This document shows, piece by piece, positions 2,452 to 7,500 of a DNA stretch of 8,870 nt. The DNA lies in IMG/VR virus record IMGVR_UViG_2671180906_000004, one strand, 5' to 3'. Numbering within the stretch: position 1 is the first letter of the stretch; each line of letters starts with the position of its first letter. Origin of the DNA: a virus (lineage: Duplodnaviria > Heunggongvirae > Uroviricota > Caudoviricetes). A model generated the notes under the pieces. That model was not told where the DNA came from and searched no databases. It saw only the letters and a program-made list of their open reading frames with translations. Both the position numbers and the translations under genes were made by a program.

Positions 2452-4041
2452 AACGAACGCCTGTCCTGATTGATGTGAACGGCGTTCCGCTTCGTGAGAG
2501 TCTCAGCTACAACGGAGGCGGCGCAGGATTTGGCGGGCAAATGGCAGAGTGGTTACCACCGGCGCAGAGTGCCGATGCGGCCCTGTTGCCTGCATTGCGT
2601 CTGGGGAATGCCCGGGCAGATGATCTGGTGCGCAATAACGGTATCGCGGCTAATGCGGTGGCCCTGCATAAGGATCATATCGTCGGGCACATGTTTCTTA
2701 TCAGCTACCGTCTGAACTGGCGTTGGCTGGGGATGCGGGAGACCACGGCAAAAAGTTTTGTCGGGGAGGTGGAAGCAGCCTGGTCGGAATACGCAGAAGG
2801 AATGTTTGGCGAGATCGACGTGGAAGGGAAACGCACGTTTACGGAATTTATCCGTGAAGGGGTGGGCGTGCATGCCTTTAACGGCGAAATCTTTGTGCAG
2901 CCGGTCTGGGATACGGAAACCACGCAGTTATTCCGTACGCGTTTTAAAGCCGTGAGTCCGAAACGGGTGGACACGCCAGGACACGGTATGGGGAACCACT
3001 TTCTGCGGGCCGGGGTTGAGGTCGATCGGTATGGGCGGGCGATTGCGTACCATATCTGTGAGGATGATTTTCCGTTCTCTGGTGCCGGACGCTGGGAGCG
3101 GATCCCGCGTGAGCTTCCCACCGGGCGTCCGGCCATGCTGCATATTTTTGAGCCGGTGGAGGACGGGCAGACCCGTGGGGCTAATCAGTTTTACAGCGTA
3201 ATGGAGCGGATGAAGATGCTGGACTCCCTGCAGGCCACGCAGCTTCAGTCGGCCATTGTGAAGGCGATGTATGCAGCCACAATCGAAAGTGAACTTGATA
3301 CCGAAAAGGCATTTGAATATATCGCGGGGGCACCGCAAGGTCAGCAGGATAATCCGCTTATTAATATTCTGGAGAAGTTCACCCGCTGGTATGACACGAA
3401 TAACGTGACGCTGGGCGGTGTTAAAATTCCGCACCTTTTTTCCTGGCGATGCGCTGAACCTGCAGACAGCGCAGGATTCAGACAATGGATTTTCGGCGCT
3501 TGAACAGGCGCTGCTGCGGTATATTGCAGCCGGTCTTGGCGTTTCCTACGAACAGTTGTCCCGTGATTACTCGAAGGTCAGTTACTCAAGTGCCCGCGCC
3601 TCCGCCAATGAGTCGTGGCGCTATTTTATGGGGCGGCGAAAATTTATTGCGGCCCGGCTGGCCACGCAGATGTTTTCCTGCTGGCTGGAAGAGGCGCTTC
3701 TTCGGGGGATTATTCGTCCGCCACGGGCGCGTTTTGATTTTTACCAGGCGCGTTCAGCCTGGTCACGGGCAGAGTGGATTAGCTCCGGAAGAATGGCCAT
3801 TGACGGGCTCAAGGAGGTCCAGGAATCGGTGATGCGCATTGAGGCCGGACTGAGCACGTATGAGAAAGAACTGGCACTGATGGGCGAAGATTATCAGGAC
3901 ATTTTCCGCCAGCAGGTCAGGGAATCCGCAGAGCGCGAAAAAGCCGGACTCTCACGTCCGGTGTGGATAGCCCAGGCGTATCAGCAGCAGATAGCGGAGA
4001 GTCGCAGGCCGGAAGAGGAGACAACATCACGTGAGACGTAA
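2448..4041 (+). CDS. B: Portal protein (gpB-like), reading frame interrupted at a T6 run (3436-3441), so either a pseudogene or a sequencing indel
   Basis: Two ORFs (2448-3503 and 3418-4041) are together colinear with lambda gpB (NGGGAGFGGQ, ARADDLVRNNG, FEPVEDGQTRGAN.FYSVME.MKMLD, LQTAQD.DNG, LLRYIAAGLGVSYEQLSR, RMAIDGLKEVQE). Removing one T from caccTTTTTTcctggcgat restores ...IPHLF-PGDALNLQTAQD... in a single frame. The ATG overlaps the W stop (ATGA). Confidence 0.85.
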
Positions 4042-5592
4042 TCTTTCACATATTATCGCTGCGGCATTCAATGAGCCGCTGCTTCTGGAGCCCGCCTATG
4101 CGCGGGTTTTCTTTTGCGCGCTCGGGCGTGAGATGGGCGCAGCAAGCCTTTCGGTACCGCAACAGCAGGTACAGCTTGACGCTCCCGGGATGCTGGCTGA
4201 AACGGACGAGTACATGGCCGGAGGCAAACGACCTGCCCGTGTTTACCGGGTGGTGAACGGTATTGCTGTACTGCCGGTGACCGGCACGCTGGTACACCGG
4301 CTGGGTGGCATGCGGCCATTTTCCGGAATGACTGGCTATGACGGCATTGTCGCCTGTCTTCAGCAGGCAATGGCGGACACTCAGGTACGGGGCGTACTGC
4401 TGGACATTGACAGTTCTGGCGGGCAGGCCACCGGCGCGTTTGACTGCGCTGACATGATTTACCGTCTCCGGCAGCTGAAGCCTGTCTGGGCACTGTGCAA
4501 TGACACGGCCTGTTCAGCCGCCATGTTACTGGCATCGGCCTGCTCCCGACGGCTGGTTACCCAGACATCCCGTATCGGCTCCATTGGGGTGATGATGGGC
4601 CATGTCAGCTATGCCGGTCATCTGGCACAGGCCGGTGTGGATATCACGCTGATTTACGCCGGATCGCACAAGGTGGATGGCAATCAGTTTGAATCCCTGC
4701 CAGCAAAGGTTCGCCAGGACATGCAGCAGCGCATTGATGCGGCGCGCCGGATGTTTGCTGAAAAAGTGGCGATGTATACCGGTTTATCTGTGGATGCGGT
4801 TATGGGAACAGAGGCCGCCGTTTTTGAAGGTCAGTCCGGTATTGAGGCCGAACTGGCGGATGAATTAATCAATGCGTCGGACGCCATCAGCGTGATGGCT
4901 GCGACGCTGAACACACACGATACAGGAGGCACTATGCCGCAATTAACTGCAACGGAGGCTGCCGCGCAGGAGAACCAGCGAGTGATGGGGATCCTGACGT
5001 GTCAGGAAGCGAAAGGACGTGAACAACTGGCCACGATGCTGGCAGGGCAACAGGGTATGAGCGTTGAGCAGGCCCGGGCGATTCTGGCCGTGGCGGCACC
5101 GCAACAATCTGGTGTATCTGCGCAGAGTGAAGCCGATCGCATTATGGCATGTGAAGAGGCGAAAGGACGTGAACAACTGGCGGCAACGCTGGCGGCGATG
5201 CCGGAGATGACGGTGGAAAAAGCCCGTCCGATTCTGGCTGCTTCACCGCAGGCGAATGCCGGACCCTCACTTCGTGATCAGATTATGGCCCTGGATGAGG
5301 CAAAAGGGGCAGAGGCGCAGGCTGAAAAACTGGCGGCCTGTCCGGGGATGACCGTGGAGAATGCCCGGGCTGTACTGGCGGGGGGCCCCGGNNNNNNNNN
5401 NNNNNNNNNNNNNNNNNNNNNNNNNNNNNNNNNNNNNNNNNNNNNNNNNNNNNNNNNNNNNNNNNNNNNNNNNNNNNNNNNNNNNNNNAACATTTCATGG
5501 CGAACCATTCACCGGCAGCGGTACAGGGTGGCGTGCCACAGACGTCAGCAGACGGTGATGCGGACGTGAAAATGCTCATGGCCATGCCATGA
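4031..5592 (+). CDS. C: Prohead protease / scaffold (gpC-like, S49/ClpP-like serine peptidase family), interrupted by an assembly gap
   Basis: GTG start at 4031 gives MRRNLSHIIAAAFNEPLLLEPAYARVFFCAL, matching the lambda gpC N-terminus (AFNEPLMLEPAYARVFFCAL as recalled). Conserved core VNGIAVLPV.GTLV, GMTGY.GI, FDCADMI, KPVWAL.ND..CSA..LLASA.SRRLVTQT, GSIGVMM, ITLIY.GSHKVDGN. After the N run the matching C-terminus (...SADGDADVKMLMAMP*) is in a different frame and stops at 5590-5592. Confidence 0.85.
4934..5592 (+). CDS. nu3: Nu3-like scaffolding protein, nested in-frame within the 3' part of gene C (partial because of the gap)
   Basis: In-frame ATG at 4934 preceded by AGGAGG (4924-4929) with a 4-nt spacer, positioned like the internal Nu3 start of lambda. 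The downstream sequence carries the Nu3-like motif IMGIL.C.EA.GRE....LA..PGMTVE.AR.ILA.APQ. Confidence 0.5.
4979..5391 (+). repeat. In-frame tandem coding repeats (at least 3 units of ~47-53 codons) of the Nu3-like scaffold motif, running into the assembly gap
   Basis: Unit starts at about 4979 (RVMGILTCQEAKGREQLATMLA...GMSVEQARAILAVAAPQ), 5138 (RIMACEEAKGREQLAATLAAMPEMTVEKARPILAASPQ) and 5279 (QIMALDEAKGAEAQAEKLAACPGMTVENARAVLAGGP...). A near-identical 26-nt core, ga(a/g)gcgaaaggacgtgaacaactggc, occurs at 5005-5030 and 5157-5182. Confidence 0.8.
5392..5488. other. Assembly gap (run of 97 N)
   Basis: Uninterrupted N run visible in the sequence; the reading frame of the gpC/Nu3 gene differs on the two sides. 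Confidence 0.99.
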
Positions 5593-5976: not shown

Positions 5977-6033
5977 CATTTTATCAGGTCACTGCGGTAG
6001 CCTGACTGATTTCTGAATGAAAGGAACTGATTT

Positions 6034-7062
6034 ATGGGATTGTTTACGACCCGCCAGTTACTCGGTTATACCGAACAAAAAGTTAAATTTCGTGCGCTGT
6101 TTCTGGAGCTGTTTTTCCGCCGTACGGTGAATTTCCATACCGAAGAGGTAATGCTGGACAAAATTACCGGAAAAACGCCGGTGGCGGCCTATGTCTCCCC
6201 GGTTGTTGAAGGAAAGGTGTTGCGTCACCGTGGCGGTGAAACTCGTGTACTGCGCCCGGGCTACGTTAAGCCGAAACACGAATTTAATTACCAGCAGGCG
6301 GTGGAGCGTCTTCCCGGTGAAGATCCGGCCCAGCTGAACGGCCCGGCTTACCGTCGCCTGCGTATCATCACCGATAACCTCAAACAGGAAGAGCACGCCA
6401 TTGTCCAGGTGGAAGAGATGCAGGCGGTGAATGCCGTGCTGTATGGCAAATACACCATGGAAGGAGAGCAGTTTGAAACTGTTGAGGTCGATTTTGGCCG
6501 GTCGGTGGGAAATAACATTACGCAGGCAGGAGGGACGGAGTGGAGCGCTCAGGACCGCGATACCTTTGATCCGACGCATGATCTGGATGCGTACTGTGAT
6601 TTTGCTTCCGGCACCATCAATATTGCCATTATGGATGGTAAGGTCTGGCGTCTGCTGAATGGCTTTAAGCTGTTCCGCGAAAAACTGGATACCCGTCGTG
6701 GCTCAAATTCACAGCTGGAAACGGCAGTGAAAGACCTGGGGGCGGTGGTGTCCTTCAAAGGGTATTATGGTGATCTGGCAATCGTGGTGGCAAAAACGTC
6801 CTATGTGGCAGAGGACGGTACCGAAAAACGTTATCTGCCGGACGGCACACTGGTACTGGGAAATACGGCCGCAGAGGGTATTCGTTGCTACGGTGCCATT
6901 CAGGATGCGCAGGCATTGTCTGAAGGCGTGGTGGCGTCTTCCCGTTATCCGAAACACTGGCTGACCGTGGGTGATCCGGCGCGTGAATTCACCATGACGC
7001 AGTCCGCGCCGCTGATGGTGCTGCCGGATCCGGATGAGTTTGTGGTGGTGCAGGTGAAATAA
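6034..7062 (+). CDS. E: Major capsid protein (gpE-like)
   Basis: 342 aa, the same length class as lambda gpE, with extensive matches (TTRQLL..EQK.KF, LFL.LFF, YVSP.V.G, PGYVKPKHE, RLP.EDP, AIVQVEEMQAV.AVL.GKYTM.GE.F, NNITQ.GGTEWS, KLDTRRGSNS.LETAVKDLG, GNT.A.G.R.YG.IQDA, RYPK.W.T.GDPAREFTM.QSAPLM, DPDEFV.VQ). AAGGA upstream. Confidence 0.95.
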   Translation: MGLFTTRQLLGYTEQKVKFRALFLELFFRRTVNFHTEEVMLDKITGKTPVAAYVSPVVEGKVLRHRGGETRVLRPGYVKPKHEFNYQQAVERLPGEDPAQLNGPAYRRLRIITDNLKQEEHAIVQVEEMQAVNAVLYGKYTMEGEQFETVEVDFGRSVGNNITQAGGTEWSAQDRDTFDPTHDLDAYCDFASGTINIAIMDGKVWRLLNGFKLFREKLDTRRGSNSQLETAVKDLGAVVSFKGYYGDLAIVVAKTSYVAEDGTEKRYLPDGTLVLGNTAAEGIRCYGAIQDAQALSEGVVASSRYPKHWLTVGDPAREFTMTQSAPLMVLPDPDEFVVVQVK

Positions 7063-7067
7063 TCCGT

Positions 7068-7094
7068 GAGCGGGAGCTAAATGCTCCCGTTTTT
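7068..7094 (+). terminator. Terminator-like GC-rich hairpin followed by a T5 run, between capsid gene E and FI
   Basis: Stem cgggagc (7071-7077) pairs with gctcccg (7083-7089) around loop taaat, followed by ttttt (7090-7094). It lies 6 nt after the E stop and ends about 20 nt before the FI start. Confidence 0.5.
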
Positions 7095-7113
7095 CATTCA
7101 ATCAGGAGCGGGT

Positions 7114-7500
7114 ATGGCTACGAAAGAAGAAAACCTGAAACGTCTTTGTGAGCTGGCTGAGAGGCTGGGGCGTGAACCGGATGTCTCCGGTAGTGCGGCA
7201 GATATTGCGCAGCGAGTGGCGGAACTGGAGGAAGAGCTTGGAGATGCGGGGGAGGTCGCAGAGCCGGATACGTACTCACCATCGAAAGATGATCCGACCG
7301 CGCATAAAGGCGAGTCAGTTCCTGAACAGCCAGGCATTGTTACCGGAGACGAAACGGGGCAGGTTACGGTGGTGGCACTGGCGACACTGCATACAAAATG
7401 TAATGGTTCAGTGATATTTGTTTCACCGGGAACGTCGTTTCGTGTTTCTGCTGAGGTGGCTGCCAGCATGGCGGCAGGTGGTCTGGCAAAAAGGCAGTAA
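7114..7500 (+). CDS. FI: DNA packaging protein FI-like
   Basis: ATG at 7114 preceded by AGGAG (7104-7108). N-terminus MATKEENLKRL..LAE.L.R...VSGSAADIAQRVAELEEEL and C-terminal VTVVAL..LHT, V.PGTSFRVSA.VAA.MA..GLA resemble lambda gpFI as recalled. The ORF track start at 7081 lies inside the terminator hairpin and is rejected. Confidence 0.85.
   Translation: MATKEENLKRLCELAERLGREPDVSGSAADIAQRVAELEEELGDAGEVAEPDTYSPSKDDPTAHKGESVPEQPGIVTGDETGQVTVVALATLHTKCNGSVIFVSPGTSFRVSAEVAASMAAGGLAKRQ

Follow-up and report, generated by a model that had tools for sequence, protein, structure and literature searches.

A leaky terminator, T-phi, stands directly behind the major capsid gene of phage T7 (gene 10), where it gives an abundant, stable capsid mRNA and lets polymerase read through to the genes downstream. 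T-phi acts on T7 RNA polymerase in a system without antitermination, and it has no sequence relation to the element studied here. The malE-malF REP and the hairpin of the Rhodobacter puf operon are stable hairpins located 3′ of the more abundant cistron; they are proposed to block 3′ exonucleases and to be the source of unequal segment stability within a polycistronic mRNA. In phage lambda and phage 21, polymerase modified by Q or Q21 is terminator-resistant across the whole late operon.

In a 2020 study of phage L, lambdoid late operons were described as transcribed by Q-modified, terminator-resistant polymerase, and it was said of the terminators within these operons that "their roles are not known" (PMC8022706). 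Two options were given there: partial termination, or a block to transcription without antitermination. The use of inefficient terminators by T7 for balancing expression is cited in the ONT-cappable-seq paper, and the Pseudomonas phage transcriptome papers make general statements on leaky terminators only. No per-gene mRNA data for the lambda late operon were found in PMC5737525. The new small RNAs of the lambda RIL-seq preprint lie at tL2a and near 6S RNA, not at E-FI; given these locations, a 3′-derived Hfq small RNA from the E-FI site was unsupported.

Stem-loops behind the capsid gene are present in several lambdoid phages. In the N15 record, the stem-loops after genes 7 and 8 are labelled putative rho-independent terminators. 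The lambda E-FI stem-loop (ATGGCCC-UUCG-GGGCCAU) and the gene 8-9 stem-loops of N15 and phi80 occupy the same site as the hairpin of this study, 2–9 nt downstream of the capsid stop and ahead of the FI Shine-Dalgarno. The capsid proteins of these three phages are homologous to that of the window (60–63% identity), and a 7-bp GC stem is found in all. They differ from the present locus in their unrelated stem, their tetraloops (UUCG in lambda) and their weaker, interrupted U-tracts, with terminator scores of d = +9 to +16. In HK97 (gp5) and P22 (gene 5), a GC hairpin with a short U run is located right after the capsid gene and before the next ribosome-binding site. The HK97 record contains a "terminator, putative" after the capsid gene and also on both sides of the major tail gene. 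The P22 record contains a stem_loop after gene 5, the location of which is likened to those of the HK97 and lambda stem-loops. HK97 and P22 differ in belonging, by annotation alone, to other lambdoid head-gene types, and their downstream gene is not FI. The E-FI hairpin described below is the phage-21-lineage copy of this long-recognised post-capsid stem-loop of lambdoid phages, and it is not a new element.

The window, which is the whole stretch of 8,870 nt analysed in this study (IMG/VR record IMGVR_UViG_2671180906_000004), comprises the left portion of a lambdoid late operon resembling that of phage 21, with the genes for terminase, W, portal, C/Nu3, D, E, FI, FII, Z, and U. The E region was 100% identical to prophages in Shigella flexneri and E. 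coli. An intact prophage of E. coli RMDEC364 (L270) was 95.9% identical; its order is the Q antiterminator gene, tRNAs, lysis genes, and then terminase to tail fibre, all on one strand. Three gaps in the window are sizeable, namely the unstructured C-D gap (36 nt), the D-E gap (57 nt), and the E-FI gap (51 nt). A mosaic joint with phage 21 is located inside FI at ~7240, away from the hairpin.

Three other features of the window were recorded. A run of 97 N at 5392–5488 lies in C/Nu3, at the place of the "Tri box" repeats annotated in the phage 21 record. The run shifts the frame in the mechanical ORF list, so that the C stop appears at 5569, while the real stop is 5590–5592, as in phage 21. 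The apparent C-D gap of 59 nt was an artefact of this frame shift, and a 7-bp hairpin at 5576–5592 was rejected as a structure of the C-D gap because it belongs to the coding sequence of C. The portal gene is broken up: the ORF at 2448–3503 matches residues 1–331 of phage 21 gp4 and the ORF at 3418–4041 matches residues 325–531, with the frameshift near a T6 run at ~3436–3441; the portal gene of L270 is intact. The split points to a decaying prophage or a sequencing error. The third feature is a perfect 15-bp inverted repeat, TGTGCAGTTGCATCC-CGCAA-GGATGCAACTGCACA, at 2169–2203 within the 3′ end of the terminase large-subunit gene, with an RNA fold of −30.8 kcal/mol (z = −6.9). Its flanks are those of phage 21, and a patch of ~35 nt is replaced. 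Compared with the phage 21 sequence, which is not palindromic, the patch is shorter by 1 nt; the reading frame of the last ~25 terminase codons is changed, and the gene stops at 2247 without overlapping W. By its sequence, the patch looks like a template-switch (quasi-palindrome) event. Among the 267 loci compared, only L222 shared the repeat.

The major capsid gene E (6034–7062 in the ORF list) ends in a TAA stop at 7060–7062, and its protein shares 94% identity with phage 21 gp7 and 63% with lambda E. The E-FI gap reads ...gtgaaaTAAtccgtgagCGGGAGCtaaatGCTCCCGtttttcattcaatcAGGAGcgggtATGgct, and all its features are on the plus strand. The hairpin consists of the 5′ arm cgggagc (7071–7077), a 5-nt loop, taaat (7078–7082), and the 3′ arm gctcccg (7083–7089). 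The stem has seven perfect pairs, six of them G-C, with one G-U pair adjoining. In the ViennaRNA minimum free energy fold of 7066–7095, the stem is optionally extended from 7068–7070 by the pairs G7068-U7092, A7069-U7091, and G7070-U7090. The U-tract is T5 at 7090–7094, followed by cattc (7090–7099 in all). The FI Shine-Dalgarno, aggag, is at 7104–7108 and corresponds in position to a ribosome-binding site annotated in the phage 21 record, M81255. The layout, with the capsid stop, the hairpin at 7071–7089, and the FI Shine-Dalgarno following one another in sense orientation, is the same as in N15, HK97, and P22.

The initial annotation had described a perfect 7-bp GC-rich stem with a 5-nt loop and T5, just upstream of the FI ribosome-binding site, and this description was borne out at 7071–7094 and 7104–7108. 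The distance of 6 nt from the E stop given there needed correction: the 7-bp stem starts 8 nt after the stop, and a distance of 5–7 nt is obtained only with the wobble extension. The hairpin had also been taken for the sole sizeable structured intergenic element of the operon, which was wrong, since the 57-nt D-E gap contains a decayed hairpin at 5984–6005.

FI starts with the ATG at 7114–7116 and extends over 7114–7500; in alignment, this ATG falls on the ORF1/FI starts annotated in phage 21 and in PhiR12_1. The mechanical list has an ORF at 7081–7500 instead, headed by a spurious in-frame ATG inside the hairpin loop. As indicated by homology and by the ribosome-binding site, 7114 is the true FI start and the loop ATG at 7081 is not. 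In the phi80 record JX871397 (L006, 1130), the FI start is given as a GTG within the post-capsid hairpin, leaving a gap of 9 nt. In N15 and in the Enterobacter locus L038, the FI start is an ATG ~35 nt downstream of the phi80 GTG, after GGAG. The GTG start of phi80 FI is probably mis-annotated.

The stability of the hairpin was investigated by RNA folding, which the initial annotation had proposed as a check against a structure too weak to be stable. The fold of 7066–7095 had a free energy of −17.7 kcal/mol (z = −5.8), and 0 of 200 shuffled sequences were equally stable; the structure is thus not too weak. The full E-FI gap (7063–7113) folded at −21.1 kcal/mol (z = −3.3). Our own enumeration of perfect hairpins with a stem of 7 bp or more gave just seven per strand of the window, and the E-FI hairpin was the sole one with at least six G-C pairs and a T-rich tail. 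In first-order Markov sequences of the same size and composition, a comparable site occurred in ~1.5% of trials, a figure that applies per window with position not yet considered. The hairpin sequence occurs once within the window. These results showed that the E-FI hairpin is stable and non-random.

The anatomy of the hairpin was compared with that of intrinsic terminators. The stem and loop fall within the size range of GC-rich intrinsic terminators (stem of ~5–14 bp, loop of 3–8 nt). U5 (7090–7094) abuts the stem, and the tail weight T was 4.4–4.9. The d'Aubenton-Carafa-type score was +34 to +39, and the trp attenuator scored +41 in the same script. A consensus terminator scanner run over the window did not have the E-FI hairpin among its listed sites. 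Presumably the scanner counts G-U and A-U pairs with the T run as part of the stem, which leaves too few T residues in the tail. The E-FI hairpin has the anatomy of an intrinsic terminator.

Several other identities of the element were considered. A minus-strand or bidirectional terminator was rejected, since the minus-strand version is an A run before the stem without a U tail. An RNase III site of the T7 type, with ~20 bp or more of double-stranded RNA, was rejected because the hairpin has at most 10 contiguous pairs including wobbles. A REP/BIME element was rejected because there was no Rfam match at E <= 1 and the hairpin sequence is unique in the window; the hairpin has neither a REP sequence nor a REP-type Rfam match, and it has a U-tract, which is absent from REPs. 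An Rfam scan of the whole window at E <= 1 gave no match, and there is no Rfam family for the element.

The hairpin in the phage-21-type lineage was examined in 17 distinct versions of the E-FI gap. The hairpin between gene 7 and ORF1 (FI) of phage 21 (M81255), which has no annotation in that record, and those of many E. coli prophages are orthologous to the window element. Phage 21 and the window have in common the flanks (TAATCCGTGAG...), the 8-pair register, the 5-nt loop, and the placement between the capsid stop and the FI ribosome-binding site. They differ in one stem pair, which is G-C in phage 21 and A-U in the window, and in the loop (GAAAT and TAAAT, respectively). In the window, U5 abuts the stem, whereas the U6 run of phage 21 is displaced by UGUC; the window copy therefore scores higher as a terminator, with d of about +36 compared with +16 to +25 for phage 21.

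All eight stem pairs were kept paired in all 17 versions (100% of cells). One pair was G-C in 14 versions, A-U in two (the window type and L243), and G-U in one (L111); the G-U pair of L111 is the intermediate between the G-C and A-U states. Two further stem pairs changed to wobble only, and the loop varied among relatives (GAAAT, GATAT, TAAAT). All stem changes within the lineage were thus compensatory or G-U wobble. Because G-U pairs work only in sense-strand RNA, the selected structure is in the mRNA. As judged from these substitutions, a sense-strand RNA structure was shown to be under selection, with a covariation that is modest and comes from few independent events.

The position behind the capsid gene was then compared across homologues of E. 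The 133 loci gave 50 distinct downstream sequences, and 24 representative lineages were compared. E genes identical to that of lambda were also present on low-coverage contigs of unrelated taxa (L017–L032 and others), such as Kitasatospora, Bradyrhizobium, and Neobacillus; these are almost certainly contaminating lambda control DNA. A GC-rich hairpin of −8 kcal/mol or lower was present at the post-capsid position in 23 of the 24 lineages, starting 2–17 nt past the capsid stop. In the first 60 nt downstream of the stop, the best simple hairpin had a median of −13.4 kcal/mol, compared with −7.3 kcal/mol in controls, which were 192 coding windows inside E. Values of −12 kcal/mol or lower were reached in 75% of lineages and 7% of controls (Mann-Whitney p = 2e-10).

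Stem sequences were unrelated between lineage types. The stem is GCGGGRGC/GCYCCCG in phage 21 and the window, TGGCCC-UUCG-GGGCCA in lambda, GTGGCCC/GGGCCAC in N15 and phi80, CGGCGGG-GAAA-CCCGCCG in Providencia, and AGGGGC/GCCCCT in Serratia. An 11-bp stem is found in Trabulsiella guamensis, CATGCCCC/GGGGCATG in an Aeromonadaceae MAG, and GGCGGCGCCC/GGGCGCCGTC in Methylorubrum, in which E is just 30% identical. The U-tract ranged from excellent (the window, Phytobacter) to absent (T. guamensis, Buttiauxella, Methylorubrum). Terminator scores across lineages ranged from −10 to +42, U-rich tails were present in most, and the window copy is among the most terminator-like. Since the hairpin is kept where the U-tract is absent, the hairpin, and not termination as such, is the conserved part. 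Across the E-gene family as compared here, conservation was shown for the position of the hairpin but not for its sequence.

Two stems resembled those of other phages. The Providencia stem (L010/L011, CGGCGGG-GAAA-CCCGCCG) is nearly that of HK97 (L268, GGGCGGG-GAAA-CCCGCCC), and the Serratia stem (L013, AGGGGC-TAC-GGCCCCT) is nearly that of P22 (L269, AGGGGC-TGC-GGCCCCT). As HK97 and P22 are of other head-gene types by annotation, the likeness may reflect either convergence or exchange of the element.

Hairpins were also found in other gaps of the operon. The D-E gap (5977–6033) contains a decayed sister hairpin, tcaggtcactgcggtagcctga, at 5984–6005 on the plus strand, which is intact in phage 21 and L270. 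Its fold was −9.4 kcal/mol in the window, where it has a C·A mismatch and a G-U pair, compared with −16.8 kcal/mol in phage 21; the whole D-E gap of L270 folded at −17.5 kcal/mol (z = −3.75). A D-E gap hairpin was present in nearly all relatives, and that of lambda is a textbook, canonical terminator-like hairpin, AAAGGCCGC-CUGU-GCGGCUUUUUUU, with U7. In the L270 late operon, six gaps are 15 nt or longer, and a perfect GC hairpin with a U run was present in five of them, namely D-E, E-FI, V-G, I-J, and J-lom. The L270 hairpins after V (the tail tube gene), I, and J are at 21524–21541, 27632–27653, and 31173–31192, respectively, and the one after V parallels the HK97 sites around the major tail gene. 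Hairpins were thus shown to occupy nearly all sizeable gaps of the operon, being located after D, E, V, I, and J. Their association with the abundant proteins D, E, and V is real but not exclusive, because I and J, both low-copy, also precede hairpins.

A role of the E-FI hairpin as a partial terminator or as an mRNA stabiliser, as the initial annotation had put it, is plausible. The best explanation, in which we have moderate confidence, is a post-capsid stem-loop of terminator type that would terminate unmodified polymerase and would mainly cap mRNA in lytic growth. Polymerase without Q modification would terminate appreciably at the E-FI hairpin, and Q-modified polymerase in lytic growth would mostly read through. 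The hairpin would then fold behind the polymerase within the long late mRNA and would be mainly a barrier to 3′-to-5′ exonucleases (PNPase, RNase II) once the downstream RNA had been cut. The D and E segments ending at the hairpin would outlive the FI-U segment. This stabilisation, with any residual termination, would leave more functional capsid mRNA than mRNA of the low-copy downstream genes.

Since Q-modified polymerase resists terminators, termination in lytic growth should be weak. Taken with the hairpins kept without a U-tract, this makes a post-transcriptional role the most likely common function. As expected of a stabiliser, a stable hairpin follows the cistron with the higher expression: one is found after E (−17.7 kcal/mol) and others after D and V. 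Sampson et al. in 1988 reportedly ascribed differences in yield among the lambda late proteins mainly to translation initiation; if so, little would be left for effects at the mRNA level, which speaks against the best explanation. As the D hairpin of the window is decayed and the portal gene is frameshifted, this prophage may no longer be under selection. Stabilisation and termination are not separated by the comparative data, because both need the same hairpin.

The same evidence was weighed for a pure attenuator, at which a fixed fraction of polymerase would stop after E in lytic growth too, so that transcription of FI and the downstream genes would be lowered. The canonical terminator anatomy and high score of the window copy are consistent with such a device, as are the U-rich tails of most lineages and the labelling of homologous sites as putative terminators by the annotators of N15 and HK97. 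Partial termination is also one of the two options in PMC8022706; however, Q-modified polymerase is terminator-resistant over the whole late operon according to the same source. The major tail gene V, which needs high expression, is downstream of both the D and E hairpins, and several lineages retain the hairpin without a usable U-tract (d <= 0). Moreover, the E stop is 8 nt upstream of the stem, and a ribosome terminating there would sit over the 5′ arm and counteract folding during transcription. Pure attenuation was therefore judged unlikely.

Hairpins may also serve as a fail-safe against polymerase that has not started at the late promoter and lacks Q, from spurious internal starts or from read-through in the lysogen, and would in this way silence the structural genes of the prophage. 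The presence of hairpins in five of the six sizeable gaps of the L270 late operon, including those after I and J, both low-copy, argues for this role, which is the second option named in PMC8022706. The same logic is put forward for conjugation operons with antitermination systems in passages of PMC8955417 and PMC8191782. However, neither the exact place 2–17 nt after the capsid stop in unrelated lineages nor the persistence without a U-tract is explained by it. As a full account of the hairpin it was considered less likely still than attenuation, but it is compatible with the best explanation and does not exclude it.

A translational device, in which the hairpin would insulate FI from E ribosome traffic by blocking re-initiation or scanning, possibly with a switch in the phage-21 lineage, was regarded as improbable. 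GCUCC (7083–7087) is complementary to GGAGC (7105–7109) of the FI ribosome-binding region, and the sequence GAGCGGG occurs twice, at 7068–7074 and 7106–7112; a C-rich arm, however, pairs with any G-rich Shine-Dalgarno, and the complementarity may be incidental. Without the 5′ arm, an alternative hairpin of −10.0 kcal/mol is formed in the window, −16.8 kcal/mol in phage 21, and −13.7 kcal/mol in L243, and the stem start 8 nt past the stop would be inside the ribosome footprint. The pairing is nevertheless imperfect in PhiR12, v5, v7, and v9 and missing from the lambda, N15, and Providencia types. The three-way match of the window and L243 counts as one event, since both come from the same sub-lineage.

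The specific form of such a switch would be a three-way competition, in which the 5′ arm (GAGCGGGAGC) and the FI ribosome-binding region (AGGAGCGGG), which are near-repeats, compete for the C-rich 3′ arm. If this were true, the ribosome terminating on E would strip away the 5′ arm, the 3′ arm would mask the FI Shine-Dalgarno, and FI translation would be throttled in proportion to capsid translation. Alternative folds between the 3′ arm and the FI ribosome-binding site were −7.6 to −16.8 kcal/mol in the phage-21-type variants. No independent covariation was found for this pairing, which is absent from other lineages, and the three-way switch is improbable.

An origin without RNA function, as a chance palindrome, a DNA-level site (protein binding or a recombination joint), or a small mobile palindrome, would agree with the lack of an Rfam family and with stems that differ between lineages as expected of independent insertions, but it is very improbable given the chance of ~1.5% per window even before position is counted, the conserved position in 23 of 24 lineages, the G-U wobble variants that keep pairing in sense-strand RNA alone, the consistent orientation with the U-tract always 3′ on the coding strand, and the phage 21 mosaic joint located at ~7240 in FI and not at the hairpin.

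The post-capsid stem-loop that would mainly cap mRNA, as preferred here, bears on how expression is graded in this family, since lambdoid late proteins range from a few to >400 copies per virion and are all made from one transcript of more than 20 kb. For annotation, FI should be started at 7114, and the E-FI gap would be treated as a regulatory RNA element and not as spare DNA. The comparative picture permits a clean test: distant lineages have a hairpin in the same place after the capsid gene, built from unrelated stems and kept even without a U-tract, and the sister hairpins in nearly every gap of the operon form the third part of this picture.
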